From positions 31,260 through 95,259 of the forward strand of contig CAZIKQ010000001.1 in assembly GCA_964540025.1 (NCBI GenBank): a stretch of DNA of 64,000 nucleotides. Reading direction: 5' to 3'. Shown in pieces: positions 19,629 through 35,252 of the stretch; position 1 is the first letter of the stretch, and the number at the start of each line of letters is the position of its first letter. A program made the position numbers and the translations under genes. The notes beneath the pieces were generated by a model. It had not been told where the DNA came from. It ran no database searches and saw only the letters and a program-made list of their open reading frames with translations. The stretch is from an uncultured Schwartzia sp. (GTDB taxonomy: Bacteria; Bacillota; Negativicutes; Selenomonadales; Selenomonadaceae).

Positions 19629-19635
19629 AAAAATA

Positions 19636-19760: not shown

Positions 19761-19777
19761 TGCAGGAAGGGATCTCT

Positions 19778-20138: not shown

Positions 20139-20160
20139 ATATTTACAGGAGATTTTTGGT

Positions 20161-20871
20161 ATGAAGATGACTAACGAAAAAAAGATGTATTCAATCGGAC
20201 GCAAAAACAAATCTTACTATCGCGAATGTATAATGCTCGCCTTATTGACAGCCGCCGCATTCTGCACTTTTGCTTTGGCAGCCTTGGCTGCCGGTTCTTC
20301 CCCATTGCCTGAGTCACAACCCTCGGCTGCTTCAAAAGAAATGGCCGCCAAAATTTCTTCCCCTGAAAAAGATTTTGGCCAGCAGATTCATTTTATCCGC
20401 ATCCACAAGCTTTCCCACACGTTGGAGCTTTTTGAAAAAGGTAAAGCCGCCCCAATCTGTACATATCCCTGCGCCGTGGCAAAAAATCCCGGGGACAAGC
20501 AGCGCGCCGGCGATAACACCACGCCCACCAGCTGGGGCGACGTAGTGGAGTCAATCCCGGAGGCTCTGCCGGAAACTCCATCTTCCGAGATTCCTTTTGA
20601 GGTCGACGAAATTGTTTACGCCGCCGACTGGACCCATGATTTCGGCGACGGCCGGGGAGAAATTGCCGGAGCCTACGGTCCCTGGTTTATCTCCTTGAAC
20701 ACGGGCTGGGACGGGATCGGGATCCACGGCACCCATGACCCGGACAGTATCGGAAAAAATGCCTCGGAAGGATGTATCAGGCTCCGCAATGAGGATGTTG
20801 CCGAGCTGAAGGATTTAATCTCCAAGCATGATGGAGGAATCGGCGTAAGGGTTGTCATCACCGAGGACTGA
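20161..20871 (+). CDS. L,D-transpeptidase (YkuD domain)
   Basis: The start was moved to ATG 20161 (RBS AGGAG). There is an N-terminal TM (IMLALLTAAAFCTFALAALAA). The catalytic motif is GIHGTHDPDSIGKNASEGCIRL. Confidence 0.85.
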   Translation: MKMTNEKKMYSIGRKNKSYYRECIMLALLTAAAFCTFALAALAAGSSPLPESQPSAASKEMAAKISSPEKDFGQQIHFIRIHKLSHTLELFEKGKAAPICTYPCAVAKNPGDKQRAGDNTTPTSWGDVVESIPEALPETPSSEIPFEVDEIVYAADWTHDFGDGRGEIAGAYGPWFISLNTGWDGIGIHGTHDPDSIGKNASEGCIRLRNEDVAELKDLISKHDGGIGVRVVITED

Positions 20872-20933
20872 CGATTGCCAAAAGACAGCTATCACCATAA
20901 AATTTCCCTTTTGAGGAACCGCGCCCCCAAGTA

Positions 20934-21170
20934 TCCCCTCTAAGGAAGGTGGCCGTCAGGCGGTCGGGGTTCATAGACAGACCAAGTTATCGGCTTACGT
21001 CACCCCTCAGTCGGCTACGCCGACAGCTCCCCTACAGGGGAGCCTCAGACAGAATAAGTGACTTTGTCGACAAGCTGAATCCCCTACAGGGGAGCCTATT
21101 AGCCAGATTATATGTTACCCTCAGTCTCCCCTTCAGAGGAAATGGCCGTCAGGCGGTCGGGGTTAGCTTG
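20934..21170. repeat. cluster of palindromic REP/MITE-like elements (family copy R1)
   Basis: Contains CACCCCTCAGTCGGCTACGCCGACAGCTCCCCTACAGGGGAGCC, a second CCCCTACAGGGGAGCC, and two exact copies of GGCCGTCAGGCGGTCGGGGTT (20950-20970 and 21144-21164). The same modules recur at 38140-38345, 45546-45580 and 46935-47075. Confidence 0.8.
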
Positions 21171-21213
21171 TTTCACGGCATAGCGTAATCTTTATTTCTG
21201 TTCAATTATGGAA

Positions 21214-21657
21214 TCAGCATATCGCGTCAAGTTGCCCGGAGATAAAATAAACCGATGAAGCTTCGCACATTCTCGTTCCCAGCTCGTCTTGTACCGTGAC
21301 AGTCAGCACGATTACCGTCTGGCCGCAATGCACGACGCTGGCCGCCGCCGTGACGGGGCCAATGCCGCGCGTGTTGCTGATGTAATTGATGTTCAGGTTA
21401 AGGGTCTGCGCAATAAAACCCAGCGTAGCGCAAGCAATGCCGCAGGCCGAATCGATCAATGTGGCCAGCGCCCCGCCGTGAAGCCCCAGCCAATGATTGG
21501 TGTTTATGTCATCAAGGATAGGCATTGCGAGGGTGACGCTACCTTCCGTTAAATTTTCTATTTTAATACCGACCGTTTGCATCATCGCGTTGCCTTTCCA
21601 AATTTCCCGGATAGCCTTGCTGCGCGATTCGTTCATAAACATTTCCTCCACATTCAC
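21214..21657 (-). CDS. PaaI-family hotdog-fold thioesterase
   Basis: 147 aa with the motif WLGLHGGALATLIDSACGIACATLG, typical of PaaI/YbgC-like thioesterases. Confidence 0.75.
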   Translation of the reverse strand: MNVEEMFMNESRSKAIREIWKGNAMMQTVGIKIENLTEGSVTLAMPILDDINTNHWLGLHGGALATLIDSACGIACATLGFIAQTLNLNINYISNTRGIGPVTAAASVVHCGQTVIVLTVTVQDELGTRMCEASSVYFISGQLDAIC

Positions 21658-21694
21658 AATATATAATAAAATTTTCTTTTCGATCTAGATTCCG

Positions 21695-22648
21695 TCAGTA
21701 AAACGCGCTGACGATCGTCATGTAAACGGGGATGGTAATCAGGCCAAAGAGGATTGTAATCATGCTCAAGGCAGCAGCGTATTGGCTGTCGGCCCCGTAG
21801 TTTTTCGCAACAATGGCCATCTGCGTCATGGCTGGCATAGCCGCCTGCATGACGAATACCTTTATGGAAAGAGGCGTTGCGGGAACAAACGGCACAAGCG
21901 TCATAACGCAGAGCGGCGAGATGAAAAAGCGGCCGGTCAAACCCCAAATAACATCGCGTTCAAAGCGGAATGTCCGCAGCGGAATGCGGCTGATTTCGAT
22001 GCCGATGAAAAGGAGCGACAGCAGCGTCGTGAGATTGCCGATATATGACAGCCCCGCGCGCAGAAAAGCTGGCAGGGGACACTCTGCAAAGATGAGAACC
22101 AGCGCAGTCAAAAAGCCAAGAAGAGGCGGCGAAAACAGTTTTTTCAGAATGGTTCGGGAGAAAAACGCCTCCGTGCTTCCCGTTGTATCGGCCAATATAT
22201 TCTGTACGCCGAACGTCCAGAAGAAAATCGTGTTTGCCATATAATAAAGCATCACGGCGGGAATGCTTTCATCCCCAAAGAGGGCGAGATTGACCGGCAG
22301 CCCGATAAAGACCGTATTGGCGATAAAAAAATTCGTTGTAAAAACGCCGCGCCGTCCCTTACGGACATGAAGCAGGCGCGCAACGATATGAGAAACGAAC
22401 ATCGCGAGGAGAATCGAGAGCACCGGCAGCAGGAGATCCGGGGCAAGCCTGCATAACCCCTCGGCGGTAAAGCTTCGCGTGAGGCCAACGACGAGATAGC
22501 AGGGCAGCGATACATTTGTCACCAGCCGTGAGATAACCGCGCCGCTCTCAGCGTGGAACCAGCCCCGCCGATTGAGAATAAAACCCGCGCTAACGACGAT
22601 AATGATCGTAAAAATTCCCTGCAAGGCCTGCAGAACGTACCCGAGCAC
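21695..22648 (-). CDS. AEC (auxin efflux carrier) family transporter, MdcF-like
   Basis: 317 aa with about 10 TM segments. The N-terminus MLGYVLQALQGIFTIIIVVSAGFILNRRGWF is typical of the AEC family, the family that contains the malonate carrier MdcF. Confidence 0.75.
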   Translation of the reverse strand: MLGYVLQALQGIFTIIIVVSAGFILNRRGWFHAESGAVISRLVTNVSLPCYLVVGLTRSFTAEGLCRLAPDLLLPVLSILLAMFVSHIVARLLHVRKGRRGVFTTNFFIANTVFIGLPVNLALFGDESIPAVMLYYMANTIFFWTFGVQNILADTTGSTEAFFSRTILKKLFSPPLLGFLTALVLIFAECPLPAFLRAGLSYIGNLTTLLSLLFIGIEISRIPLRTFRFERDVIWGLTGRFFISPLCVMTLVPFVPATPLSIKVFVMQAAMPAMTQMAIVAKNYGADSQYAAALSMITILFGLITIPVYMTIVSAFY

Positions 22649-22815
22649 AAGAAATCACCCTTTCCGCTATGTTCGCTGCATAGAATATAATTCAGAAATC
22701 ATCATAAAAGCTAAGAGACGCTTATTGCGCACCGCCGGAAAAGAAATGACGAACAACGACGCGATAGGGACAGCATACGGCAGAAGACATACGCGCGCCC
22801 CATATCTACATGAGT

Positions 22816-22845
22816 AAAGCCCAGCAAAAAAAAGCTGGGCTTTTA
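22816..22845. terminator. hairpin at the end of the mad operon
   Basis: AAAGCCCAGC (22816-22825), an A8 loop, then GCTGGGCTTT (22834-22843), 37 nt downstream of the madM stop. The U-tract is better on the plus strand, so the efficiency for madM is uncertain. Confidence 0.4.
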
Positions 22846-22881
22846 CTTTAACAGGTAAAAAATGGCGATAACCAAGACTGT

Positions 22882-23637
22882 TTATCCAAAAATAGCCTGC
22901 GTCAGGAAGTAGAACACCGAAGGGAAGGTCAGGCAGCCCGAACCTGTATAGAATGTCGCGGTCATCGCTGCGTAAGGAACGAGCTTCGGATTGACTGCGG
23001 CCATACCAGCGGCAGTGCCGCTGGTGGTACCCATGAGCCCGCCAAAAATCATAGCGGCCTGCGGATTATCCAAGCCGACGGCTTTGGCCACAAACGGCGT
23101 GCAGATCATAACGAGCACGCTCTTGACGACACCCGCCGCAATGCTGATGGCAATGACCTCCGAGGAAGCGCCAAGCGCCGCTCCCGTCACAGGTCCTACG
23201 ACGAAGGTTGCGACGCCGGCGCCGATCGTATTCAGGCTGACAGCATCACGATAGCCGAACGCATAAGCGATTGCCACACCAGCGATCCACGAAGTCACCA
23301 GTCCTAAAACGAGGGAAATAACGCCGACCGCACCCACCTTTTTAATCTCGCGCAGATCCGCGCCAAATGCCGTCGAAACGATTGCAAAGTCACGGAACAT
23401 TGCCCCGCCCATCATGCCGATACCGGCAAACATGGGAATCAATGCAATTCCTTTAGAGCCGCCGCCAAGGTAAGCAAGGACAAGGCCGAAGAAAATCGCC
23501 ACAGCCGAACCATGAATGCGGCCTTTCGTCAATCCGGCCAGCTTATAAGCGACGAGGTTCGTTAAACCGATAAGCACAAAGGCGAAGATGAGCCCGTTTT
23601 TTGTCAACACCTTGCTGAACATCGCTGCAATATCCAT
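22882..23637 (-). CDS. madM: malonate transporter subunit MadM
   Basis: 251-aa polytopic membrane protein. Its start overlaps the madL stop (TAATG at 23637). The size, order and sequence (MDIAAMFSKVLTKNGLIFAFVLIGLTNL...) fit the MadL/MadM two-component malonate carrier. Confidence 0.8.
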   Translation of the reverse strand: MDIAAMFSKVLTKNGLIFAFVLIGLTNLVAYKLAGLTKGRIHGSAVAIFFGLVLAYLGGGSKGIALIPMFAGIGMMGGAMFRDFAIVSTAFGADLREIKKVGAVGVISLVLGLVTSWIAGVAIAYAFGYRDAVSLNTIGAGVATFVVGPVTGAALGASSEVIAISIAAGVVKSVLVMICTPFVAKAVGLDNPQAAMIFGGLMGTTSGTAAGMAAVNPKLVPYAAMTATFYTGSGCLTFPSVFYFLTQAIFG

Positions 23638-24029
23638 TATTTCACCGCCGTTTCTTCATCGCTGATTTCGCCTTGACCTTTTTTCCCACGGGAAAGGATG
23701 GGAATCAGGGCAAAACCCAGGATAACCCCGAGAAGCCCGCCGCCGATTGCAACCGCGCCGCCAGAGAGCGCGGCAACGACATTTTGAATGGAACTCATCG
23801 CAACGACAATCGGAATGTACATTGCGCTCCAAAACGCGATTCCTTCCTGGCTCTTCTTGTCCAGCCAGCCGTCATCGATGCCTTTATTTGCCAGGATGAT
23901 CAAGAGCAGCATGGCAAAGCCGACACCACCGACATTCGCCTTGACGCCGAGAAGCACGCCGAGCACATCTCCGGCGAAAATGCCGGCGATATAACAAGCC
24001 GCAAGCAGCGCTACACCATAGATAACCAT
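23637..24029 (-). CDS. madL: malonate transporter subunit MadL
   Basis: 130-aa protein with about 4 TM segments (MVIYGVALLAACYIAGIFAGDVLGVLLGVKANVGGVGFAMLLLIIL...). RBS GAGGAGG. It is paired with madM. Confidence 0.8.
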   Translation of the reverse strand: MVIYGVALLAACYIAGIFAGDVLGVLLGVKANVGGVGFAMLLLIILANKGIDDGWLDKKSQEGIAFWSAMYIPIVVAMSSIQNVVAALSGGAVAIGGGLLGVILGFALIPILSRGKKGQGEISDEETAVK

Positions 24030-24202
24030 AAATTTACCTCCTCAGTACAATTTTTTATTATCACCGCAGGAAAAACAGATCCTGAAAACGACGAAACAAC
24101 TGAGAATGTCATACTTTATCGAAAAAATAACCTTCGGCAAAAGGGGCGGCATGGCAACAAAATTCACTCATACCGCCTCACTCTCACCTATTAAAGGAGG
24201 GT

Positions 24203-24412
24203 TTACTCGACGATAGCCAGCACCTGACCGGCACGAACCCTGTCCCCTTCCTTGACCTTGTACTCCTTGACAACTCCGGCGGCAGGGGAAGGAACTAATT
24301 GCTTCATCTTCATAGCCTCCATGACGATGAGAACATCCTTGACGGCAACGCTGTCGCCAACGGCTTTTTCAAAACGGACGATTTTTCCGGGAACGCGTGA
24401 TTTTACTTCCAT
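24203..24412 (-). CDS. madF: biotin carrier protein of malonate decarboxylase, copy 1
   Basis: 69-aa biotinyl domain with the EAMKM biotinylation motif (MEVKSRVPGKIVRFEKAVGDSVAVKDVLIVMEAMKMKQLVPSPAAGVV...). RBS AGGGAG. Confidence 0.85.
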   Translation of the reverse strand: MEVKSRVPGKIVRFEKAVGDSVAVKDVLIVMEAMKMKQLVPSPAAGVVKEYKVKEGDRVRAGQVLAIVE

Positions 24413-24456
24413 GATAATATCTCCCTTACTTTGATTAAAAATTGTTTATTCCTGAA

Positions 24457-24666
24457 TCACTCGACGATAGCCAGCACCTGCCCCGCGCGGACGCGGTCCC
24501 CTTCCTTGACCTTGTACTCCTTGACAACGCCGGCAACAGGGGAAGGAACGAGCTGTTTCATCTTCATAGCCTCCATGACGATGAGAACGTCCTTGACGGC
24601 AACGCTGTCGCCGACCGCCTTTTCAAAACGAACGATTTTTCCGGGAACGCGTGATTTTACTTCCAT
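24457..24666 (-). CDS. madF: biotin carrier protein of malonate decarboxylase, copy 2
   Basis: The start was moved to the internal ATG 24666 (RBS AAGGAG 8 nt upstream). The 69-aa product is identical to copy 1 except for A44V, and the EAMKM motif is present. Confidence 0.85.
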   Translation of the reverse strand: MEVKSRVPGKIVRFEKAVGDSVAVKDVLIVMEAMKMKQLVPSPVAGVVKEYKVKEGDRVRAGQVLAIVE

Positions 24667-24747
24667 GATAAAGTCTCCTTTGTTTTTCTTAAATTTACGG
24701 GTGTGGTTTCGTGACGAACTGTTGCCATCGCATTTCAAGCCGTCACA

Positions 24748-25419
24748 TCACGATAAATATTCCGTTATTTGCTGACGTTCGAGCAGCGCGACGTCGTGCA
24801 GGCTCTTACCCAAAACGGTCCTGGTATCGGCGAAAATCTCAGCGATCTTCACGCCGTAGCCATTGCGGAATTCGACCTCAACATCCATTCTGACATCAGG
24901 GTAAAGACGGCGCGCTTCTTCCGCAAAGGCCGACAAGCGTTCCAGAGAAGCCTCCTGAACGAGCAGGTCAAGGTCAGAATCCAAATCGGTATAAGGGAGT
25001 CCTGTCGCCATTTCAAGCGCCACAGACCCAAGCACCCCAACTCTCAAATTCATGCTCTGCCCGAGCTTCGCCAGCATGACGGCTGCTTCTATACAGCGAT
25101 GACGCGGCGTGACAGGCAAATTGACAACATCATAGGGACGCATCACATGGCTTACTTCGGCGATAGGCACCCGCGCAGGAATGCGGATGCGGTTATCGTC
25201 AAGACGAAGATAATGAACGAACCCGATGGGAATTGTTTCAGGTGAAATTGGTTCATCACGGCGCACGATGCCGGGAATGTCGGCCGGGCCCATGAGAATC
25301 TCCTCTACCATATCGAGCATAGTTCCCTGATAAAAGTGCAGCAGCTGCTCTTGCAGGAACAGCTTGCCCTTATCGGTAACAAATGCGAGATCATGTCTTA
25401 AAAAGACCGTTTTTTCCAT
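24748..25419 (-). CDS. mdcG: malonate decarboxylase holo-ACP synthase (phosphoribosyl-dephospho-CoA transferase)
   Basis: 223 aa with the MdcG-type nucleotidyltransferase block GVLGSVALEMATGLPYTDLDSDLDLLV. It lies within the mad cluster. Confidence 0.75.
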   Translation of the reverse strand: MEKTVFLRHDLAFVTDKGKLFLQEQLLHFYQGTMLDMVEEILMGPADIPGIVRRDEPISPETIPIGFVHYLRLDDNRIRIPARVPIAEVSHVMRPYDVVNLPVTPRHRCIEAAVMLAKLGQSMNLRVGVLGSVALEMATGLPYTDLDSDLDLLVQEASLERLSAFAEEARRLYPDVRMDVEVEFRNGYGVKIAEIFADTRTVLGKSLHDVALLERQQITEYLS

Positions 25420-26501
25420 ACCGGATCTGCCTTCCCATTCTGTTGATAATCAACCTGCGCCTGAACCAAATCATCAAAAAGCTGCGTTTTTACCGGGCCC
25501 TCAACGATGGCGCCATCACATACATTCTTCGTCCCGCCCGTACTCATTGAGTCAGGCACGAGGCGAAGCACGGTGTGATCAGCGCGCATTTTGACGTGTG
25601 GCGACACCCTTACAATGCGTCCCTTGATGCGCAGGATGGTTCGCGCAACCCGCTGGATGGTCGCATTGGAAGCCAGTGTCGTCGCCTCGACGATCGTCTC
25701 GTGCTCCGGATAGGCGCGCTGGCGCCGATAGGTGATGATTTTTCCGGCGCTGTCAAGAATATGACCGCTCCTCGAAACGGGGAAAGTGTCACCCATAGCC
25801 AGGCCGCCCACGACAAGCTCCTGCCGTTCTTCTTCGGCTCCCGAAAATGGCAGCAGGACAATATCATCTCTCAGCGGTACGCCATTGAGTACCAACCAGC
25901 CAAATTCCTGGCATCCGTAAAGATCGTATACCCTCGCCTGAAGCAGGTCAGCGACGGGAAGAAGCTCCAGATCCAGCGGCGTTCCCGCAGTGAGAAGCGC
26001 AAGCCCCTGGGGCAGCTCATCCATGACGCCCATGCGGTGGGCGTCCTCAAACGCAGCCCGTAAAAACGACGATTCGCCGACGACGGCCCGGGGTTTCTGC
26101 TCGTAAAGCGCCACCAAAAAAGCGTCACGGCTTGAACGCGTAAGAAATGAACATTCCAGTCCATGCGCCTTGATGGCGTCGCCTGAAAAAACGTTGACCA
26201 GCGGCGGATAAGTCACGAGCAGGCGGTCGCCGGCCTCAAGTCCAACCCGGTCAAACACGGCCCGGGAAGCGGCTATGCGATGCGACAGCTCCGCATGGGT
26301 GACGCCGACGATATTTTGAAAGGAGGACGACCCGGTGGTAAAGGTGGTATAAGCAAAATTCAAAGGGGTATGAATCTCCTCAATAACATGCGCGCTGGTA
26401 GGCCCGGCGATTTTTTTGTCTGCCAGCGTGAGGCGCGTCATTTCCGCCAGCGTTGGCGCCGAACCGAAGTCCCTGACGAGAAGCGCAATGTCTTCGAGCA
26501 T
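25398..26501 (-). CDS. adenylate-forming ligase-like protein, candidate ACP-SH:acetate ligase (MadH-like)
   Basis: The start was moved to ATG 26501 (RBS GGAGG 8 nt upstream; the ORF-track start is a TTG). It has a P-loop-like TTFTTGSSSF and a PaaK/F390-synthetase-like layout. It occupies the madH position between madD and mdcG. The functional call rests mainly on position. Confidence 0.45.
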   Translation of the reverse strand: MLEDIALLVRDFGSAPTLAEMTRLTLADKKIAGPTSAHVIEEIHTPLNFAYTTFTTGSSSFQNIVGVTHAELSHRIAASRAVFDRVGLEAGDRLLVTYPPLVNVFSGDAIKAHGLECSFLTRSSRDAFLVALYEQKPRAVVGESSFLRAAFEDAHRMGVMDELPQGLALLTAGTPLDLELLPVADLLQARVYDLYGCQEFGWLVLNGVPLRDDIVLLPFSGAEEERQELVVGGLAMGDTFPVSRSGHILDSAGKIITYRRQRAYPEHETIVEATTLASNATIQRVARTILRIKGRIVRVSPHVKMRADHTVLRLVPDSMSTGGTKNVCDGAIVEGPVKTQLFDDLVQAQVDYQQNGKADPVWKKRSF

Positions 26502-26528
26502 AAGAAGCCCCTCCTTCTGCTCCTTCAA

Positions 26529-27419
26529 TCAAGCGTCGATATACTTATCGGCAACGGCGTTAAACTCCGCATCAAGCTTTTCGATGGTACTGATCCGGTG
26601 TGTGCGCCCGCCGCGTTCGTTCCCGAGAATCCCGCGCCCCCACGGTCCCAGGAGTTCATATTTGCCCTCTTTTTTCAGCGCGCGAACCTCGTTTACGTGT
26701 TTAATGACATACTCGCGCATATTCTCCGGCTCCGGAACGATTTCCTGAACGCCGCCGAGCTGATAGAAAAAATTCGCGCCGGCTGCGAAAACAGGATTCG
26801 TCTCCGAGAGCTCCTCGAGGCGCTCGATGTCCATCTTCGTTATCCGCGAGATAGAGGTGAGGGGCATAACGTGAATCATGACGCCCCACGACTTGTCAAG
26901 GGCAAGGATATGATCCGCCTGTAAGCCGTGGCAGAGGAAGGCGCCGGAAATCGCGCGGCCGATGACCATCGCGATGATCGGATGCCCGGCCTTCCGGGCC
27001 TCGGCCAGCGCCAGCTGATACGAGCCCGTCGCCTTATTCATGCCGGCAATCTCTTCCAGCTTACCGGGACCGTTGCCCGGCGTATCGACGACGAGAACGA
27101 TCGCGCGTTTTTCTTCCAGCGGTTTATCTTTATCCGTCTCCATCGTGTCATACACGGCATTGGCCATCTTATAGGCTTCTTCCATCCCGATGACCCCGCC
27201 GAAGACAACTGGAAATCTCTCATTGAAGGCTTCAGCGTCATTGGCAATGATCGTGGCCGGCTTACCCTCCAGCAAAACCGTACCGACAACCGCGCCCGGT
27301 CCATATTCCGGATCCAGCGCAAAGGAACCGATATGTCCCTCATCGAAGCTGTCCTTGTCGGCGATCATGCCGATCGCATCGCGACCGTGACCAACCATGG
27401 TTTTCTCTTCATCAAACAT
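26529..27419 (-). CDS. madD: malonate decarboxylase carboxyltransferase subunit (MadD / MdcE-like)
   Basis: 296 aa with an acetyl-CoA carboxylase alpha-like carboxyltransferase fold (VVDTPGNGPGKLEEIAGMNKA...IIAMVIGRAISGAFL). Confidence 0.8.
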   Translation of the reverse strand: MFDEEKTMVGHGRDAIGMIADKDSFDEGHIGSFALDPEYGPGAVVGTVLLEGKPATIIANDAEAFNERFPVVFGGVIGMEEAYKMANAVYDTMETDKDKPLEEKRAIVLVVDTPGNGPGKLEEIAGMNKATGSYQLALAEARKAGHPIIAMVIGRAISGAFLCHGLQADHILALDKSWGVMIHVMPLTSISRITKMDIERLEELSETNPVFAAGANFFYQLGGVQEIVPEPENMREYVIKHVNEVRALKKEGKYELLGPWGRGILGNERGGRTHRISTIEKLDAEFNAVADKYIDA

Positions 27420-27434
27420 CTGGATTCCCTCCTT

Positions 27435-28394
27435 TTACGGGCGCACGCGGCGCTTAACGACCTTCAGGAATTCGGCGGTTCCCATATCGGGCAGTTTGTC
27501 TGGCGCTTCGTTGCCAAAATGCCGCCAAAGGTCCATCGCGTCGCCCGGTTGAAGGTCGCCGACGAGCTTTACGAGCTCCTGCTGCTCCGCAACGAGCTTT
27601 TGCGAACCGATACGCCTTCCCTTTTCGATCTCATCCATTGGCAGCGCGGCAACCTTTTTGAGCGCTTCATAGAAGGAGCCGATTGTATCCTCGACAAGAT
27701 AATTACAATCGCCGACAATATATTTTTGTTTGCCGCCGGTGGTCCGATAGACCAAAGCTTTGTTGGAAGCGTCAAACTCCTCCTTGCCCATTTCCTGCTC
27801 GATTACCTCGGGTCCCGTAAGGCCAATCCGCCCTTCCTGACTCATGATAATTACATCGGTTGCCGCAGCCACGAAGCCCATGCCGCCAAAGCAGCCGACC
27901 TTACTGCCGACTACCGCAGCGATCGGGATAATCCTGCGGGCGTCCTGAATCGCGTCCATGACCTCCGCATGAGCCAGAAGACCCGCGTTTGCCTCATGCA
28001 GACGAACGCCGCCTGTTTCAAACGAGATGGCGACCAGCGGACGGCGCTCATCATAGTCATCCGGATGCTTCTCTTTGATTTTTGCGGCCACCTTGCGCGC
28101 CAGATGGATCGTCTCCACCATTTTTGCGCCGTTCACTTCGCCAATCGCTCCGCCGATGAATTTCCCTTCCATCGAAACGATAAAAATCGGATGCTTCCCG
28201 AGGAGGCCGACGCCAGTCACCGTGCCATCGTCAAATTCGATCGCCGTGCCCAGCACCGGCAAATGCGGGCTGCAAATTCGATCGCGGGGGCCGAGGAGTT
28301 CAGTAAACGTTCCCTTATCGGCCATGCCAAAAGCGCGCTCTCTTGCACTTGCATTAAAGAAGCTGCTCTTTACCAACTCATCCCAAGCCTTCAT
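27435..28394 (-). CDS. madC: malonate decarboxylase carboxyltransferase subunit (MadC / MdcD-like)
   Basis: 319 aa with an AccD-like carboxyltransferase fold (VTGVGLLGKHPIFIVSMEGKFIGGAIGEVNGAKM...GGVRLHEANAGL). Confidence 0.82.
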   Translation of the reverse strand: MKAWDELVKSSFFNASARERAFGMADKGTFTELLGPRDRICSPHLPVLGTAIEFDDGTVTGVGLLGKHPIFIVSMEGKFIGGAIGEVNGAKMVETIHLARKVAAKIKEKHPDDYDERRPLVAISFETGGVRLHEANAGLLAHAEVMDAIQDARRIIPIAAVVGSKVGCFGGMGFVAAATDVIIMSQEGRIGLTGPEVIEQEMGKEEFDASNKALVYRTTGGKQKYIVGDCNYLVEDTIGSFYEALKKVAALPMDEIEKGRRIGSQKLVAEQQELVKLVGDLQPGDAMDLWRHFGNEAPDKLPDMGTAEFLKVVKRRVRP

Positions 28395-28395
28395 G

Positions 28396-28722
28396 TTACA
28401 CAGCCTCCTTCGCGGTCGCCTCGGCCCACGCCTGACGAAGCCTCATGTAGACGACTATCGGCGTGGCGTTATCATCGTTGATCTCGATGCTGACGTTTCC
28501 GGCGCCCGTGTCGTTTACAAATTTTTTAATCATGCGTTCCCAAACCCTGTCGAAGCCTTTGACGGGCGTCACGACTTTTGCTTTAACGCCGCCCTGTAAA
28601 TCCATCTTCTCCATCAGGCATTCCATATCGCCGGAACCGGTGACGCCGAGATGGGACCATTCCTTTGCCATCTGCTCGCGATTCGCGGATTCAAATGTGA
28701 AATTCAACGTTTGCAAAGCCAT
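28396..28722 (-). CDS. madE: malonate decarboxylase acyl carrier protein (delta subunit)
   Basis: The start was moved to ATG 28722 (RBS AGGAGG). The 108-aa product contains the prosthetic-group serine motif GVTGSGDMECL, as in MdcC/CitD. Confidence 0.85.
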   Translation of the reverse strand: MALQTLNFTFESANREQMAKEWSHLGVTGSGDMECLMEKMDLQGGVKAKVVTPVKGFDRVWERMIKKFVNDTGAGNVSIEINDDNATPIVVYMRLRQAWAEATAKEAV

Positions 28723-28735
28723 ATCTGATTCCTCC

Positions 28736-30409
28736 TTACCAGTTCCGGAATTTAGCCGGCGGATTATAAAGACCCTTTGACCAGACGACAAGATCGTGTA
28801 CATTCTTGGCCGCAAGGCGTTCGCGCGTAGCTTTGGCAACGTCGATACCAAGATCGGCCGGCGTCTTGATAATGCCTTTTTCACGCAGGCGCTGCGTCTC
28901 GTCCGGATCCGCTGCCAGGCCCACCTCTGTGAAGCCGGCGACGCCGCGGATGGCTGCCGTCCTCTCTTCCATGCCTGAGCATTTATGGAGATAAGCGATT
29001 CCTTCCTCCGTCACGATGTGAGTGAGATCGTCACCGTAAATCATCACCGGTTCGATCGGCAGATTCGCGTTTTTAGCCAGGTCAAAGGCGTCAAGCCGCT
29101 CGACAAAGCCCGGCGCGAGCTTTTCACGGAAGGTTTCCTGCAGCTGCACGACCAGGCGCTTACCGCGATGCACCGGCCCCCACATCTGTTCAGCCAATCC
29201 GTATTCCTGACCAACCTTAAGCCAGGCGCCCGAGGAGTGGCGGCGGCCTTTGGGATCGCAGCCCATATTCGGCGCTCCGCCAAAGCCTGCGACGCGGGAA
29301 GCCGTAGCCGTAGAGCTGTTGCCATAGGGATCAATTTGCAATGTGCCGCCGATGAACATATCGACAGCATAGTGACCGGCGACCTGCGAAAAGGCGCGGT
29401 TTGAACGCATCGACCCATCGGGGCCGACGAAGAAAATATCGCTGCGCGCGGCCACATAATCTTCCATCCCCAGCTCTCCGCCAAAGCAGTGAACCGACTC
29501 GACCCATCCGGTCTCTATCGCCGGAATAAGCGAAGGATGCGGGTTAAGAATAAAATTCCTGCAAATTTTGCCCCGCAGACCGAGTTCCTCCCCATAGGTC
29601 GGCAGGAGAAGCTCGATGGCAGCCGTATCGAATCCGATGCCGTGGTTCATCGACTCGACGTTGTATTCACCGTAAATTCCCTTGATCGCCATCATCGCGC
29701 GCAGGACCTGGGAATCCGTGATGAGCGCCGGATCCCGCGTGAAGAGCGGCTCAATATAAAATGGTTTCGGCGATTGGATGACATAATCAACCCAGTCCGC
29801 CGGAATATCAACGCGGGGCAGCTTGTCGACGATCTGATTCACCTGGGCGATGACAATCCCCTGGCGGAATTTTGTCGCTTCCACAATCGCCGGAGTATCC
29901 TCCGTTGAAAAACCCGTGAAGAGATTGCCATCGGCATCCGCCATCGTGGCGGCCACCAGCGCGACGCGGGGCGTCAAATCAACGAAATAGCGGCCGTAGA
30001 GCTCAAGGTATGTATGAATGGCGCCAAGCTCCAGCCGGCCCTCCTGAAGGAACTCGGCAATGCGTCCTGCCTGCGGACCCGAGAACGACATATCGAGCTT
30101 TTTGGCAATGCCCTTTTCAAAGACATCAAGATGCTCCGGCAGCGTCAGAACCGATTGCACCATGTGCAGATCGTGAATCTTTTCAGGATCGACATCGCAC
30201 AGGCACCGAGCGAGAAAATCGGCTTGTTTCTGGTTGTTGCCCTCTATGTTCACCTTGTCAAACGGCTTGATGACAGCCTCGAGCAATGCGACGGCATCCT
30301 TGGCGTCGACGACTTTACCCTCCCTGACAAGGTGCGCCGCCGCCTTCTTTCGGGCTAAGGCATCTTGTTTGCGGGTATCCCAGGTCCGGGATGTCCCCTG
30401 TTTCTCCAT
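28736..30409 (-). CDS. madA: malonate decarboxylase alpha subunit (acetyl-S-ACP:malonate ACP transferase)
   Basis: 557 aa, with MdcA/MadA length and CoA-transferase-like sequence. RBS AAAGGAG. It is the first gene after the long leader. Confidence 0.88.
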   Translation of the reverse strand: MEKQGTSRTWDTRKQDALARKKAAAHLVREGKVVDAKDAVALLEAVIKPFDKVNIEGNNQKQADFLARCLCDVDPEKIHDLHMVQSVLTLPEHLDVFEKGIAKKLDMSFSGPQAGRIAEFLQEGRLELGAIHTYLELYGRYFVDLTPRVALVAATMADADGNLFTGFSTEDTPAIVEATKFRQGIVIAQVNQIVDKLPRVDIPADWVDYVIQSPKPFYIEPLFTRDPALITDSQVLRAMMAIKGIYGEYNVESMNHGIGFDTAAIELLLPTYGEELGLRGKICRNFILNPHPSLIPAIETGWVESVHCFGGELGMEDYVAARSDIFFVGPDGSMRSNRAFSQVAGHYAVDMFIGGTLQIDPYGNSSTATASRVAGFGGAPNMGCDPKGRRHSSGAWLKVGQEYGLAEQMWGPVHRGKRLVVQLQETFREKLAPGFVERLDAFDLAKNANLPIEPVMIYGDDLTHIVTEEGIAYLHKCSGMEERTAAIRGVAGFTEVGLAADPDETQRLREKGIIKTPADLGIDVAKATRERLAAKNVHDLVVWSKGLYNPPAKFRNW

Positions 30410-30729
30410 CTGAAACGCTCCTTTCTAAATTTTGGATACAGGAATCAAGACAATCGGGAGGCGGAGATTTCGCGTTTATGCGCCAGTACCACTCGCCCTT
30501 TTATCCTTTGGCTCGCGTTCTGTAACATCAACGTATCTTTCCTTTGAAATCAGACCCAAACGAAAAATCAAACCGGCGCCCCCGAAACGGCATGAAATTT
30601 GTGACTGCAGAAGAGTCATTCGCCTTTGAAAAACGAATACGGAACGACAGCAGCGCAGCTGCCGCCAAAAAGAAAGCCAGTACCCACCTCCCTTTGTTTT
30701 TCCAAAGCTTCAAATCAGCTCATAGAGAT

Positions 30730-30768
30730 AAAAAAACGCATAAAAAGCAATCGCTTTTCACACGTTTT
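30730..30768 (-). terminator. intrinsic terminator inside the hutP-like / madA intergenic leader
   Basis: The minus strand reads AAAACG-TGTG-AAAAGC-GATT-GCTTTT-TATG-CGTTTT followed by TTTTTAT. This is a two-tier hairpin plus U-run, about 120 nt downstream of the hutP-like stop and about 320 nt upstream of the madA ATG. Confidence 0.55.
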
Positions 30769-30830
30769 CTCATTCGCCACTATTAAATTGTCCCGGCTGC
30801 AGCCGGTTTCTGCATCGCTGGCAGTAAAGC

Positions 30831-30877
30831 CCCGTCCCTACGCTTCTTTTATCCCTGATATATCCCTCATGGACGGA
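30831..30877 (-). promoter_or_regulatory. hairpin displaying three NAGGGAY motifs (candidate protein-binding RNA site)
   Basis: The minus-strand stem UCCGUCC (30877-30871) / GGACGGG (30837-30831) encloses a loop with GAGGGAU (30868-30862) and CAGGGAU (30857-30851). UAGGGAC (30840-30834) overlaps the 3' arm. Confidence 0.3.
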
Positions 30878-30889
30878 CGATGCTGTTTT

Positions 30890-31333
30890 TTAGATATTCA
30901 TGATCCCCAGGCCGGCGCGATCATGATTGGTCATATAATGCAGAGCGGATTGTCCAAAGGTAGCTACGGCAATCCATGTATCGTCACGGACGACGGCGAT
31001 TTTCAGCGCCAGCGATACGCTGGCGTTCGGCCTCAGGACAATTCCCTGCTTAGCCTCTTCCGCCGCGTGAAGAAGCGCGTGGATGCTGCCCGGCTCCTTC
31101 TCTATGACCTCGGAATTGATCGCCGCGCCAATTACCGCGCGATTGAATTTATCATTAAATTCATTGAAGGTCGTCTTACCGCCAACCTCGGTAACTGCCG
31201 CCCTAAACCCTGCTTTCGACACGATTTGTTTGGCGATTGCCTCATCGTGAATCGTTTGAGTCAGGGCCAGAAACATTGCCGCCGTGCCGACACTCTTAAC
31301 GCTGTTCGTCATAAATGATGAATTTTCCATCAT
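30890..31333 (-). CDS. HutP-family RNA-binding antiterminator-like protein
   Basis: 147 aa, alignable end to end with B. subtilis HutP (148 aa). KSVGTAAMFLAL aligns with RRIGRLSVLLLL, SIHALLHAAEEAKQGI with ESHALYHATMEALHGV, LKIAVVRD..DTWIAVATFGQSAL with LRFAVLRG..DWIAVSLYGTIGAP, and the C-terminal HDRAGLGIMNI with HETFGVGINHI. Confidence 0.82.
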   Translation of the reverse strand: MMENSSFMTNSVKSVGTAAMFLALTQTIHDEAIAKQIVSKAGFRAAVTEVGGKTTFNEFNDKFNRAVIGAAINSEVIEKEPGSIHALLHAAEEAKQGIVLRPNASVSLALKIAVVRDDTWIAVATFGQSALHYMTNHDRAGLGIMNI

Positions 31334-31457
31334 AGCTCAGACACCTTTCTTTGGAATCAACAACGAGCATTAAGTCGTTCCCCGCTTAACGCTTGATGAC
31401 GGTACCCTGTAAAGAGTGGAGTCTCCAAAAGGCGCCAATCAGCTTATCAAGAATGAC

Positions 31458-32207
31458 TTAGCGGATACTGATTTCTCCAAAGGAAAATGTTTGAATACAG
31501 CCATCCTCTCTTCGTACCGTGAGAGAACCATCCTCAGAAAGAGCTGTCGCTGTACCACTCCATATCACACGGTCGTCATCTTTAACAATGACCTCTCTAC
31601 CAATGGTATTATTCATCGCGAGCCATGCAGGAAGAATCTTTGACATCCCGTTGGCTTCCCAATCTCTAACATGGATTTTCATGTCGGCGAGCGCTTCCCG
31701 CAGAACCTCATCCGGCGCGTAGACAATTCCCGTCGCAGTGCGGAGCGAAACGGCGCGATCCTTTAATTCGCCAGTCCATGTATCAGGCGGTAAATCGACA
31801 TTGATCCCGATGCCAACGACGAGAAAATCAACGGATCCCTTTGTGTCCAAAGCCATTTCGGCAAGGATACCGGCAATTTTCTTCTCCCCAATGAGTATAT
31901 CGTTCGGCCATTTAAGACAAATGTCGTTCCTTCTATAAAGGCGGCGAAGCGTTGACACGACGCTGACGCCAGCCATCAGAGAGGCTGCCGCCGTACACTC
32001 GGGGGCGACGCTGGGACGCAGGAGCAAGGAAAACCACAGGCCGCCTGCCGGACTGTGCCAGCGGCGCGACTTACGCCCGCATCCCGCTGTCTGCCTCGAT
32101 GCGACGATGACCGTTCCCGAGGGAGCGCCTGCCCTGGCTAATTCAAGGGCCCGGCGGTTCGTAGAGTCAATCTCTTCATGACGCTCTATCTGCCAGCAGC
32201 CGTCCAT
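31458..32207 (-). CDS. birA: biotin--protein ligase (group I, no HTH domain)
   Basis: The start was taken at ATG 32207, which overlaps the madB stop (TGATG). The BPL motifs are IDSTN and ASRQTAGCGRKSRRWHSPAGGLWFSLLLRP. Confidence 0.85.
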   Translation of the reverse strand: MDGCWQIERHEEIDSTNRRALELARAGAPSGTVIVASRQTAGCGRKSRRWHSPAGGLWFSLLLRPSVAPECTAAASLMAGVSVVSTLRRLYRRNDICLKWPNDILIGEKKIAGILAEMALDTKGSVDFLVVGIGINVDLPPDTWTGELKDRAVSLRTATGIVYAPDEVLREALADMKIHVRDWEANGMSKILPAWLAMNNTIGREVIVKDDDRVIWSGTATALSEDGSLTVRREDGCIQTFSFGEISIR

Positions 32208-33418
32208 CAGCCAACCATGTGAATCGTCGAGATAAAGACGCCGCACGCAATCGCGGAGACGATGACGCCCGCGATATTAGCTCCCATGGCAACCGGCATA
32301 ATCACGGCGAACGCATCCTCATCCTCGGCAATATGCTGGGCTATCTTCGCCGTTGTCGGCACGCAGGAAACACCGGCGATGCCGACAACCGGATTAAAGT
32401 CGCCATTTTTCCACTTGTAGATGAGCCAGCCGCCCAGGACGCCAACCACGCCAGACACGGTCAAGGCGCAAACCCCAAGAACAACGAGCGGCGCAACCTT
32501 TGGATTAAGTAAGGTTGAGGCCTCGCAGAGAGTGCCCAGCAACAGGCCAAGCATCATCGTCGAAGCATAGAGCATCGTGCTTTCCAAAAGATCCTGATAG
32601 GGAACGATCTCAGCTTCTTTAATCGCCATCCCAAGGAAGAAGGACATGATAAGCGGCGCAGCCATCGGCAGCAAAACGCAAAGGATCGCGCAGCAGACGA
32701 GAATGAAAATGAATTTTTGAGATTTCGGAACCTCCGGCGCGTCAAAAATTATATCCTTGCCGCGGTACTTCTTAGGGACGAGCCACTTGACAAGTGTCGG
32801 ATAACCGGCATAGGTCAGAGAAAGATAGAGATAAGCAATGACGGAGATTGGCACGAAAAGCTCCGGCGCAAGGATAAGCGAAGTAAAGAGGACGATCGGG
32901 CCGTCTGCACCGCCGATTGAGGCCACCGCCGCCGCTTCATTCGGGGCGAGCCCGAGATGAGTACCGAGAATAAGCGTAGCAAACGTGCCAGCTTCAGCAA
33001 AAATCGCGATGATGATCGACGTCCAGGGATTTGCCAGGATGAAGCTGATTTCACACATTGCTCCGATTCCCATGAACACGAAGCAGGCGACCAGGCTGTT
33101 GCTAAACGTAAGGTTGTAGATAGGCTGCAGAAAGTTGATCTGCATGATGTTCATCAGTTCTGCCGGGTCCGAAACGAGCGGGTCAAGAAAAATCGTGCCG
33201 ATATTTCCCCCCTTGAGGAAAAGGACGCCGCAGTTAATGCAGATCATGCCGATGCCCATTGGTACCATGATAAGGGGCTCCAGCTTACGGCTGAAGCCAA
33301 GATAGGCTAACACAAAACCAAAGGCGATAAGGAGAACGCGAGCGATCGCAATGGTCGGCTCTTGTACGAAGAGACTTGCGATGCCCGGGAAAAGTGTCGC
33401 AACGATATTGCCGTCCAT
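32207..33418 (-). CDS. madB: Na+-translocating carboxybiotin decarboxylase beta subunit (MadB/OadB family)
   Basis: 403-aa polytopic membrane protein with conserved OadB/MmdB/GcdB blocks, including SIGGADGPIVLF. Confidence 0.9.
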   Translation of the reverse strand: MDGNIVATLFPGIASLFVQEPTIAIARVLLIAFGFVLAYLGFSRKLEPLIMVPMGIGMICINCGVLFLKGGNIGTIFLDPLVSDPAELMNIMQINFLQPIYNLTFSNSLVACFVFMGIGAMCEISFILANPWTSIIIAIFAEAGTFATLILGTHLGLAPNEAAAVASIGGADGPIVLFTSLILAPELFVPISVIAYLYLSLTYAGYPTLVKWLVPKKYRGKDIIFDAPEVPKSQKFIFILVCCAILCVLLPMAAPLIMSFFLGMAIKEAEIVPYQDLLESTMLYASTMMLGLLLGTLCEASTLLNPKVAPLVVLGVCALTVSGVVGVLGGWLIYKWKNGDFNPVVGIAGVSCVPTTAKIAQHIAEDEDAFAVIMPVAMGANIAGVIVSAIACGVFISTIHMVG

Positions 33419-33561
33419 TATGCCACCCCCTCTTCATTTTCTTCCGCATAGGGATCGCTCTTCGGCATCAGCTTATTAAGCGCAACAATGGTGCCCATCA
33501 AAAACAGAGAAATCGCGGCTGTAAAGAGATACGATAACGCCGCATAAACCTCGATGCTCAT
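33418..33561 (-). CDS. small membrane subunit, OadG/MmdD-like (not in ORF track, 47 aa)
   Basis: The product MSIEVYAALSYLFTAAISLFLMGTIVALNKLMPKSDPYAEENEEGVA has one TM and an acidic tail. RBS AAAGGAG lies 8 nt upstream. The stop overlaps the madB ATG (TAATG). This position and architecture match the small subunits of Na+-decarboxylases. Confidence 0.55.
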   Translation of the reverse strand: MSIEVYAALSYLFTAAISLFLMGTIVALNKLMPKSDPYAEENEEGVA

Positions 33562-33852
33562 TATAAAACTCCTTTCAGGCAATTCAGGTAAATTAAAACG
33601 TAACTAAATCATTGTTGACGTCGGTTCCGCCGCGCCGCCAGCGGTTTCCGGAATACCGCGTGCAAGACAGGGCGTCAGCCGTTTTTTCGCAAACAAAAAA
33701 GGGAACAAAGAAATAGAACTCATACTCTCTATCTCTATGTCCCCTGAGCTACCCCATCGCCGCGCCAACTGGCGCCACAACGACAAAGGAAAGGAAGATC
33801 GCTTGAATGTCTGCTCATCCAACGGCTATGAAGTTGTTCTCATTCACTTGTG

Positions 33853-33887
33853 TACTCGCGTACTAAATTCCCAAATACTCTCGTACT
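33853..33887. promoter_or_regulatory. two 12-nt direct repeats in the mad divergent control region
   Basis: TACTCGCGTACT (33853-33864) and TACTCTCGTACT (33876-33887), 23 nt start to start, in the AT-rich 585-nt gap between the small-subunit gene and madG. Confidence 0.3.
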
Positions 33888-34145
33888 CACGAACTCTCTT
33901 TATGGATTTTATATACCACACATTATGAAATGTGTCAAGAAAATTTTTGAGTTTTTCCATAACGCCCGCAGGAGATGTTTGCCGGGCAAAACCTTCCGTT
34001 AAAAATTCCCGCATATTTTTTAAGTGTCCTGATTGCCATTGCAATCAATGCGGTGATAAAATGTCACGAATCAAAACTCCAGCCAAATATTTTTCACATT
34101 CTGAAGAAGTATACAGGCGAAACAGAAAAAACAGGAGGTAATCTC

Positions 34146-35117
34146 ATGAAATTGCTCCATGACGAACTTTGGCAACGCATCGGCGAGCTCGCCTTGACAT
34201 CTATGCTGTACGAGGTATCGACAACGCCAAAGCCAGGACTCGTGGACCGCTCGAATTGCGGCGCCCATCTCGACATGGACTTTTTTACTTTCATGACTTC
34301 TGCCTCTTCGCTGCGTCAATTTTTTGATTCGGCCGCTGAGACGGGCTGGAAGGCCGGCTCCGCTTCAAGAGATCCGCTTTCGGTCCTGCACGCTCTGATG
34401 AAGCTGGGCATTGCCGGCGAGAGGCGCATGTTTCGCGCAACGCGCGGCGTCAATACCCACAAGGGCATGATCTTCAGCCTCGGTCTCGTTGTCTGTGCAG
34501 CCGCTTTCGTGGCGCGCCAAAACACCCTCGCGCCGGAGGCGGTCATAGAGACAGCCGCGATGTACGGACGGCATTTTTTTCTGAAGAAATACGGCATGGA
34601 ATACAGTGCGTTGAATAGCGGTAACACGGAAGAAATTGACACGTCGCCGGCTGCCGTCAGCGCTCGAACCGCGCGGCTGCAAACGCGCCGTCAAAATACG
34701 TCGCCCGTTACGCGCGGCGAAGAAGTTTATGTGCGCTATGGTTTGCTGGGCGTCTCCGGCGAAGCTGCCGCCGGATTTCCAAGCGTCCTCACGATTGGCT
34801 TGCCGGCTTATCGTGCCTGCCGGGCAGTAAATATGCCGACAAACGACGCCCTCGTTGAAACGCTCCTGCACCTCATCGCGAAGATGGACGATACAAATAT
34901 TCTGGGCCGTCACGACTTGCCGGCCCTGCGTTACGCGCAGCGTGCCGCCGCCCAAACCCTGGCGCTCGGCGGTATGCGGACCGACGAAGGAAGAGCGGCT
35001 ATTGAAGCGCTTGACCGCGATTTTATCAATCGCTGGATCAGTCCCGGCGGCAGTGCGGATATGCTGGCCATCACTCACTTTTTATATGAACTCCCGCACC
35101 TTCTGAAACAAGGTTAA
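34146..35117 (+). CDS. madG: triphosphoribosyl-dephospho-CoA synthase (MdcB/MadG/CitG family)
   Basis: The start was moved to ATG 34146 (RBS AGGAGG). The CitG/MdcB block is YEVSTTPKPGLVDRSNCGAHLDMDFFTF. It is divergent from the rest of the mad genes. Confidence 0.85.
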   Translation: MKLLHDELWQRIGELALTSMLYEVSTTPKPGLVDRSNCGAHLDMDFFTFMTSASSLRQFFDSAAETGWKAGSASRDPLSVLHALMKLGIAGERRMFRATRGVNTHKGMIFSLGLVVCAAAFVARQNTLAPEAVIETAAMYGRHFFLKKYGMEYSALNSGNTEEIDTSPAAVSARTARLQTRRQNTSPVTRGEEVYVRYGLLGVSGEAAAGFPSVLTIGLPAYRACRAVNMPTNDALVETLLHLIAKMDDTNILGRHDLPALRYAQRAAAQTLALGGMRTDEGRAAIEALDRDFINRWISPGGSADMLAITHFLYELPHLLKQG

Positions 35118-35252
35118 AAAGGCAGTCCCTTTTGCCGATGCGCCTGCGATTTTCCTTTACCCTGCCGCCAGTATGTGCTATCATAAGCAATTATCATCTT
35201 TTGAAAATATTTTGCCAGACGTATATTACGAGGAGTACAGGAGGCTTTCACA

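Follow-up and report, generated by a model that had tools for sequence, protein, structure and literature searches.

A 64,000-nt stretch of the ~2.2-Mb genome of an uncultured Schwartzia sp. (hereafter the window, meaning the whole stretch of DNA studied) carries a complete, apparently functional operon, mad, predicted to encode a Na+-translocating, biotin-dependent malonate decarboxylase of the Malonomonas rubra type. The operon appears to have been acquired horizontally, within a ~19-kb block, from a lineage resembling Phascolarctobacterium, and we regard this identity and this origin, taken jointly, as very probable. It also contains a gene for a HutP-family protein that may control the operon by antitermination, a proposal for which the case is about evenly balanced. 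The host is a gut member of the Selenomonadaceae (class Negativicutes): its genome falls in the same GTDB family as Propionispira arboris DSM 2179 and Megamonas UBA1799, and the Clostridia-like host assumed in an earlier reading of this DNA (the original prediction) is not borne out.

Gene content and identity of the mad operon

Genes were called from a listing of open reading frames (ORFs) and from Pfam and NCBIfam profile searches, with scores read against curated cut-offs (Table 1). Curated models were passed above cut-off by MadB, MadA, MadE, MadC, MadD, MdcG/MadK, MadL and MadM, while Pfam-level support was obtained for MdcB (CitG), MadF (Biotin_lipoyl), the ligase (BPL) and HutP. All reading frames of the mad block are intact and full length relative to their models. 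The gene content and order are almost item by item those of the original prediction, which had also assigned the system to the membrane-bound, biotin-dependent Malonomonas type rather than the soluble mdc type; the MadB equivalog match, together with small biotin carriers and a ligase beside MdcA and an acyl carrier protein (ACP), agrees with that assignment. MadB also matches models for the beta subunit of oxaloacetate decarboxylase (OAD; PF03977 and TIGR01109, 203 bits). Since MadA and the ACP score above their equivalog cut-offs, the carboxyltransferases are not merely like those of methylmalonyl-CoA (coenzyme A) or oxaloacetate decarboxylases that lack MdcA and ACP, and the Mad assignment stands.

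Table 1. Features of the window discussed in the text, with positions counted from its first nucleotide.
Feature	Position	Strand	Evidence or detail
~19-kb block missing in three congeners	16165-35148	.	between folB (15778-16146) and a quinolinate/nicotinate phosphoribosyltransferase-family gene (35253-36308)
Cluster of dispersed REP-like palindromic repeats	20925-21164	.	two 47-nt direct repeats
Hotdog-fold (PaaI-type) thioesterase	21214-21657	-	PF03061 8.8e-12; TIGR00369 72.5 bits
AEC-family (Mem_trans) membrane transporter	21695-22648	-	PF03547 1.7e-26; under TIGR00946 cut-off; 233 nt downstream of madM
madM, malonate/Na+ symporter subunit	22882-23637	-	TIGR00808, 331.6 bits vs cut-off 236.3
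madL, malonate transporter subunit	23637-24029	-	TIGR00807, 138.2 bits vs cut-off 113.45
madF copy 2, 69-aa biotin carrier, EAMKM motif	24203-24412	-	PF00364 1.1e-16; within 235-nt tandem repeat
madF copy 1, 69-aa biotin carrier, EAMKM motif	24457-24666	-	PF00364 3.1e-16
mdcG/madK, holo-ACP synthase (phosphoribosyl-dephospho-CoA transferase)	24748-25419	-	TIGR03135, 114.2 bits vs cut-off 99.7
madH-position gene, adenylate-forming-like	25398-26528	-	AMP-binding match weak, 25 bits, below cut-off
madD, carboxyltransferase subunit (MdcE homologue)	26529-27419	-	TIGR03134, 282 bits vs cut-off 237
madC, carboxyltransferase subunit (MdcD homologue)	27435-28394	-	NF005530, 366 bits vs cut-off 228
madE, malonate decarboxylase ACP	28396-28722	-	TIGR03130, 104.5 bits vs cut-off 84.1
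madA, acetyl-S-ACP:malonate ACP transferase (MdcA homologue)	28736-30409	-	TIGR01110, 958.9 bits vs cut-off 789
T2, conserved block AAUAGUGGCGAAUGAGAAAA then 21-bp hairpin and U-tract, putative HutP-like target	30727-30784	-	downstream of hutP, upstream of madA; fold z = -4.4
HutP-family protein, 147 aa, putative RNA-binding antiterminator	30890-31333	-	PF09021 8.9e-32, 110.5 bits vs 25
Biotin-protein ligase (birA) without N-terminal helix-turn-helix domain	31458-32207	-	TIGR00121, 188 bits vs cut-off 83; start overlaps madB stop
madB, membrane carboxybiotin decarboxylase and Na+ pump (predicted)	32207-33418	-	TIGR03136, 648 bits vs cut-off 596.9; model positions 3-399 of 399
47-aa single-helix membrane peptide	33418-33561	-	ORF and strong ribosome-binding site (RBS) visible in sequence; stop overlaps madB start
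Hairpin with invariant UCCGGA loop	33633-33666	-	between T1 and first RBS
T1, leader terminator, GGGGACAUAGAGAUAGAGAG...CUAUUUCUUUGUUCCC then UUUUUUGUUU	33691-33744	-	supported by folding; 5' arm reads AUAGAGAUAGAGAG
Two sets of three (N)AGU, 8-nt period, 5' leader	33846-33895	-	AGTN5AGTN5AGT matches
Likely operon promoter, TTGACA, 17 nt, TGgTATATA	33904-33938	-	read from sequence; near-consensus
mdcB/madG, triphosphoribosyl-dephospho-CoA synthase, divergent	34146-35117	+	PF01874 (CitG) 274.8 bits vs 27

Among characterized systems, the mad cluster of the marine deltaproteobacterium M. rubra (Berg, Hilbi and Dimroth 1997; EC 7.2.4.4; cited in PMC8085960) has the same set of components, namely MadB, A, E, C, D, the MadH-position protein, MadK/MdcG, F, L, M and MadG/MdcB, all of which except MadH are model-checked in the window. 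The window differs in that madG is divergent, whereas M. rubra madG lies upstream in the same direction; in carrying a ligase gene and a HutP-family gene between madB and madA, a duplicated madF and a 47-aa peptide preceding madB; and in its gut Selenomonadaceae host. The core order in the 1997 M. rubra paper is reportedly B-A-E-C-D-H-K-F-L-M, as in the window.

The biotin-independent mdcABCDEGH systems of Klebsiella, Pseudomonas and Acinetobacter (PMC5534430) share homologous MdcA, ACP, MdcD/E, MdcB and MdcG with the window, but the window is without the MdcH malonyl-CoA:ACP transacylase and without an MdcR or MdcY regulator. It has instead a membrane MadB, small biotin carriers and a ligase, and the carboxyl group would therefore pass via biotin to a Na+ pump. 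The OadGAB and MmdABCD Na+ pumps (PMC7274780) share with the window a homologous beta subunit and a biotin carrier domain, and likewise have a small single-helix protein encoded beside the beta subunit; in contrast, MadA activates the Mad substrate on a dedicated ACP, whereas the other pumps use a free acid or CoA ester, and the 47-aa peptide of the window matches no OadG or MmdD model. NCBIfam equivalogs above cut-off name the window MadC and MadD 'biotin-independent malonate decarboxylase subunit beta/gamma', a label that, in a biotin-dependent system, is a likely source of misleading automatic annotation.

Several genes that the original prediction had singled out as unexpected additions (birA, hutP and the second madF) instead recur in related mad clusters. 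When 80 related loci were mapped with tblastn, birA, a HutP-like gene and often a second madF proved standard in clusters of Phascolarctobacterium, Propionispira and Megamonas, and HutP-like and birA genes were also found in clusters of Lachnospiraceae, Oscillospiraceae, Eggerthellaceae, Spirochaetota, Gilliamella and a deltaproteobacterial metagenome-assembled genome (MAG). The ligase is an extra, dedicated copy, since a second birA (35% identity to the operon ligase) lies elsewhere in the host genome. The two madF copies differ at 19 of 210 nt, giving 15 synonymous codon differences and one non-synonymous difference. A comparison of 13 genomes gave 91-98% identity between the copies of one genome and 64-77% between those of different genomes, which implies that the copies evolve in concert or have been duplicated repeatedly, with purifying selection acting on them. 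The 47-aa peptide has homologues at 45-59% identity holding the same position in Negativicutes and Eggerthellaceae loci.

A few points weigh against so complete a reading of the operon and its function. The host is known from a MAG alone, with function read from its genes. The protein at the madH position matched no curated NCBIfam model; its gene is nevertheless kept in place at 47-68% identity in nearly all mad loci mapped, and the protein is the presumed ligase for acetylation of the ACP thiol. MdcB falls slightly short of TIGR03132 (270.9 bits against a cut-off of 282), lies just under three NCBIfam cut-offs in all and contains an insertion. Its gene starts at the ATG at 34146, with an AGGAGG RBS 7 nt 5' of that codon and a promoter-like site at 34033-34062. 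The 47-aa peptide gave no Pfam match at E <= 1 (OadG, PF04277, included) and no NCBIfam match; because it matches no family, the 'OadG-like' label given to it in the original prediction reflects its position and single helix and is not supported as a family assignment.

Proteins related to MadB also occur outside mad clusters. At five loci in Flavonifractor plautii and other Oscillospiraceae or Peptococcaceae, a MadB-like protein (60-66% identity to the window MadB) adjoins a madF-like carrier gene and a distant carboxyltransferase gene (26-28% identity to MadC), with neither madA nor an ACP gene. In these loci, the MadB-type pump may serve another decarboxylase.

Probable acquisition of a ~19-kb block

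The original prediction had proposed horizontal acquisition on the grounds of atypical composition. Acquisition is upheld, by evidence of a different kind: an empty site in three congeners, rarity in the family, and phylogeny. Homologues of folB and the phosphoribosyltransferase gene, which flank the block in the window, lie ~220 nt apart in the three congeners, and blastn homology to this empty site ends at 16164 and restarts at 35149. These break points define an acquired block of ~19 kb whose left edge lies ~5 kb beyond that drawn in the original prediction. MadB scored above cut-off in 4 of the 121 family genomes sampled (2 of 5 in the genus) and is common in the family that holds most Phascolarctobacterium-type matches. 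The closest MadB (99% identity) comes from a mouse-gut MAG labelled Selenomonadaceae, and the next closest (77-86%) are all from Phascolarctobacterium. A phylogeny of MadA and MadB, which the original prediction had recommended, was run by maximum likelihood on both proteins together; it nests the window within Phascolarctobacterium (support 98/97 and 100/98) and apart from the other two Selenomonadaceae, Propionispira and Megamonas.

Composition gives no such signal. The hand counts behind the claim of a compositionally distinct block (30/60 and 40/60 GC in two lines) were correct, and they proved unrepresentative: GC content is 0.533 in the interval of the original prediction and 0.528 in the genome as a whole, which puts the interval at the 52nd percentile of 14-kb windows; it ranks at the 82nd percentile for tetranucleotide distance, and GC at third codon positions (GC3) of the mad genes ranges from the 18th to the 59th percentile of 1127 long host ORFs. 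Atypical composition was therefore rejected as evidence of transfer, these three measures being host-like. The transfer seems old enough, or the donor similar enough, for base composition now to match the host. Some Phascolarctobacterium lineages are as GC-rich as the host (locus GC of 0.56-0.61 in two of them), which may explain the missing compositional signal.

The host-like composition and GC3 would also suit vertical inheritance within the Negativicutes followed by repeated loss in the Selenomonadaceae, with an ancestral island and deletions in the three congeners. So would the occurrence of mad clusters with the same order in several Negativicutes families, as well as two null results that count against transfer: no integrase or transposase ORF was found for the block, and the junctions showed no convincing target-site duplication or att core, the longest shared word being 12 nt and lying off the break points. 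Vertical descent is nonetheless very unlikely in our view. It would have to accommodate a MadA and MadB that group within Phascolarctobacterium and not with Propionispira and Megamonas, and a MadB confined to so few genomes of the family. Moreover, to share the tight folB-phosphoribosyltransferase junction, the three congeners would have had either to undergo identical deletions or to inherit a single empty site from their ancestor.

Transfer from a Phascolarctobacterium-like lineage thus remains our preferred account, and the acquired block may be composite. Its contents are a CsgG/LpoB-like three-gene operon, a YkuD gene, the cluster of repetitive extragenic palindromic (REP)-like elements, the thioesterase, the AEC transporter, the mad operon and mdcB. 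The three-gene operon (16439-19350, minus strand) encodes secreted proteins, one LPP20-like, one uncharacterized and one CsgG/LpoB/FlgT_C-like. The AEC transporter and the thioesterase fall within the interval considered by the original prediction and are absent from its gene list. The transporter, possibly an additional carboxylate carrier, lacks conserved counterparts in the clusters of relatives, where a lone weak match was found at one locus. Thioesterase homologues (34-35% identity) adjoin an upstream hutP paralogue at three loci, a loose link to mad clusters.

The REP-like repeats, taken in the original prediction as the left boundary of the island, are real, but the insert begins further left, near 16165. 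Their core palindrome, CCCTACAGGGGAG, is present in 145 copies in the genome, and a 300-nt region of the cluster returned 404 blastn matches; because the family is dispersed genome-wide, the cluster was rejected as the island edge. Many copies of the palindrome stand at contig ends, and the family probably fragments this assembly.

A HutP-family protein and the RNA elements beside it

The protein encoded between birA and madA is, judged by its profile and predicted fold, a true relative of HutP. A profile of 25 HutP-like sequences matched the HutP structures 4ok9, 1vea and 1wmq in the PDB at E values of 1e-11 to 4e-10 (best 1.3e-11); phmmer with the single sequence found no match in the PDB, and the profile was required. 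In the AlphaFold model (predicted local distance difference test score, pLDDT, 92), the 11 best PDB matches by Foldseek were all HutP, with template modeling (TM) scores of 0.68-0.75. An H-x3-H pair (H85 and H89) is invariant among the homologues. The three-histidine metal site of Bacillus subtilis HutP consists of H73, H77 and H138. Compared with the B. subtilis protein (PDB 1wmq, 1wpv and 1vea; PMC2425495), the window protein keeps the fold and the H-x3-H motif, but identity is ~23-28%, the third metal-site histidine is replaced by asparagine, and hut genes are missing. Orthology to the histidine-responsive hut regulator was rejected: the HutP equivalog NF002838 gave 28.9 bits against a cut-off of 155, and no hut genes lie nearby.

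Bacillus HutP binds two XAG-rich sites flanking a terminator stem between hutP and hutH (PMC2425495). The mad locus has a similar layout, in which the gene is followed by an intrinsic terminator with XAG repeats in its 5' flank and arm; it differs in its motif (AUAGUGG..GAGAGAG) and in its repeat period, which at loci that show one is 8 nt and not 7. The hutP-madA spacer of more than 30 loci contains AUAGUGG, then 3-7 nt, then GAGAGAG opening a hairpin that is closed by CUCUCUC and a U-tract. An nhmmer model of the 5' block of this element (T2), built from 19 other loci with the window excluded, finds that position, and it alone, in 24 loci at E < 0.05; its best window match is at 30786-30761 (13.9 bits, E 0.004). 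The second-best match of the block in the genome (C18:13073) was set aside as chance, lying inside a coding start. RNAalifold on a MAFFT alignment of T2 elements recovered five pairs, the hairpin interiors varying in length.

The leader upstream of madB carries a further set of elements. Terminator arms of the type RGAGAGAURGAG stand at -240 to -265 from madB in seven related loci, and relatives with an extra upstream hutP paralogue have this sequence at the place of T1. On the sense strand, mad regulatory regions are enriched ~14-fold for GAGAG. The only two window matches to AGTN5AGTN5AGT are both in the leader (0.11 expected; at least two in 0 of 100 shuffles; six in the whole genome), and in a sibling genome a 1-nt deletion disrupts the second set. 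The operon promoter was missed by a consensus scan because the last base of its -10 hexamer is A. Every Acidaminococcaceae or Selenomonadaceae mad leader examined (the window and 21 related leaders) has the UCCGGA hairpin, whose stem scores 0.494 for covariation, a value reached by none of 500 shuffles (shuffle score, 0.267); in leaders of other clades it is essentially absent, TCCGGA occurring in four loci and near the same position in one. A search of 18000-38000 against Rfam at E <= 1 returned nothing, and the leader elements therefore belong to no curated RNA family.

In two Phascolarctobacterium succinatutens-type loci, the mad leader contains a cobalamin riboswitch (RF00174, 46 bits; gathering threshold, 31.5; L016:9548-9690 and L025:9544-9689), ~310-450 nt upstream of madB and followed by a terminator, at loci without the upstream hutP paralogue. 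In such species, B12 would gate expression of the malonate decarboxylase. The window has no cobalamin riboswitch. A pan motif (RF01749, 49 bits; L004:177-270) lies upstream in the locus of P. faecium DSM 14760, a cultured carrier of this cluster type, and is unrelated to the mad operon.

Eight Negativicutes genomes carry HutP-like paralogues, 53-58% identical to the window protein, that lie outside mad clusters and immediately precede a family III CoA-transferase gene. The spacers between the two genes contain AGUGR..GAGRGACAGAG, a hairpin, and CUGUCCC with a U-tract in 8 of 8 cases, so the element travels with the regulator and not with the mad genes. These pairs look like a second regulon type of the same regulator branch; nhmmer with the Phascolarctobacterium block found no match in these spacers, and the likeness there rests on inspection. 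The branch extends over Negativicutes, Clostridia and Eggerthellaceae, with more divergent members in Proteobacteria and Spirochaetota. A second, far more distant HutP-like family (~140-160 aa, 30-50 bits to the mad-type profile) is the sole match in ~80 of the 114 matching genomes among 201 Negativicutes genomes, and is an extra one in some genomes with the strong type.

Taken together, these patterns suggest control by transcription attenuation, in which the HutP-family protein would bind the GAG/UAG-rich RNA on the 5' side of T1 and T2 and, given an effector, allow RNA polymerase to pass both terminators, by analogy with the mechanism described for HutP (PMC2425495 and PMC12591593). The candidate effector is malonate, perhaps as a metal chelate. 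In its fuller form, the proposal is of an undescribed, dicarboxylate-sensing branch of HutP, possibly binding a malonate chelate at its histidine site, that reads GAG/UAG-rich RNA by terminators, controls the mad operon through two attenuators as well as the family III CoA-transferase operons, and moved as a module with the mad operon. We would put this fuller version at even chances.

Several observations weigh against such control. Whereas 22 of the 25 homologues have histidine at the third metal-site position, the window protein has asparagine. The T2 match of the window is weaker than those of its relatives (13.9 against 15-24 bits). The hutP-madA spacer measures 475 nt, including ~300 extra nt between T2 and madA (30410-30726, minus strand), found only here and in a sibling MAG (94% identity), where relatives have ~55 nt. 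This extra stretch contains a direct repeat, a GTGGTACTGGC-like motif at 30688 and 30494; it was considered as a repeat or a miniature inverted-repeat transposable element and rejected as such, having no other match in the genome. The strict descriptor AG[TG]-N5-AG-N6-AG[TG] occurs in 5 of 63 zones downstream of hutP, and the 8-nt period is thus not universal. Co-occurrence of the HutP-like protein with MadB is partial: in the 201 Negativicutes genomes, 19 have both, eight MadB alone and 16 the HutP-like protein alone.

Alternatively, the HutP-like protein could belong to the decarboxylase itself and serve its structure or assembly, perhaps as a subunit that binds a small molecule or a metal, with ordinary terminators nearby. 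RNA binding by the window protein is a prediction, and the asparagine at the third ligand position would be easier to understand on this view, as would those Eggerthellaceae and some Clostridia loci in which hutP lies just 26-54 nt before madA, too short a distance for a terminator. We nevertheless consider a structural role improbable, because the same subfamily, with an analogous block and terminator, precedes unrelated CoA-transferase genes, and because conservation of the sequence immediately 5' of the terminators, and within the 5' arm itself, goes far past the needs of a plain terminator. The arrangement also mirrors the hutP-terminator-hutH order of Bacillus (PMC2425495).

Predicted malonate metabolism and wider meaning

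The gene set suggests a route for malonate in which each enzyme step is read from orthologous proteins and from the known malonate decarboxylase and Na+-pump mechanisms (PMC8085960 and PMC5534430). MadL and MadM would import malonate with Na+. MdcB (MadG) and MdcG (MadK) would attach the 2'-(5''-phosphoribosyl)-3'-dephospho-CoA group to the carrier MadE, whose thiol would then be acetylated by the MadH-position enzyme, and MadA would swap the acetyl for a malonyl group on the carrier. MadC and MadD would hand the carboxyl group to biotin on MadF (two copies), biotinylated by the operon ligase, and MadB, with the 47-aa peptide, would decarboxylate carboxybiotin in the membrane and pump Na+ out of the cell.

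The purpose of this route could be other than energy-conserving catabolism. Malonate competitively inhibits succinate dehydrogenase and fumarate reductase, and in a propionate producer the enzyme might mainly remove it, or might act on a related dicarboxylate. The genome does encode a methylmalonyl-CoA-decarboxylase-like set (a second OAD_beta on contig C68, and a carboxyltransferase and a biotin carrier on contig C2) that suggests succinate-to-propionate metabolism, and the placement of close HutP-like regulators before CoA-transferase genes means that the effector may be another dicarboxylate. However, MadA, MadB, MadL and MadM all pass malonate-specific equivalog cut-offs, and a Na+-pumping MadB would conserve energy whatever the purpose of the pathway; we therefore judge a role mainly in malonate removal, or in the use of another substrate, to be unlikely.

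Decarboxylation-driven Na+ pumps are among the simplest known means of energy conservation, and to our knowledge the biochemistry of the malonate decarboxylase pump comes almost solely from M. rubra. The enzyme type itself is already known, most of its parts being named by NCBI models. Phascolarctobacterium, a gut genus that is abundant and consumes succinate, commonly carries the full mad system, and a literature search turned up no experiments on how these gut bacteria use malonate. Three features appear to be new, or at least unreported in the literature searched: the clean passage of the system from one Negativicutes family to another, how prevalent it is in Phascolarctobacterium, and the proposed HutP-type control layer. 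The system seems to have moved between families of the Negativicutes as a self-contained block that includes a biotin ligase and a putative regulator.

Of greater importance than the enzyme system may be its regulation. A 2025 review lists HutP for the Bacillus hut operon alone (PMC12591593). If the control proposed here is true, a second widespread use of HutP with a different effector would extend the family and supply a compact protein-RNA switch.

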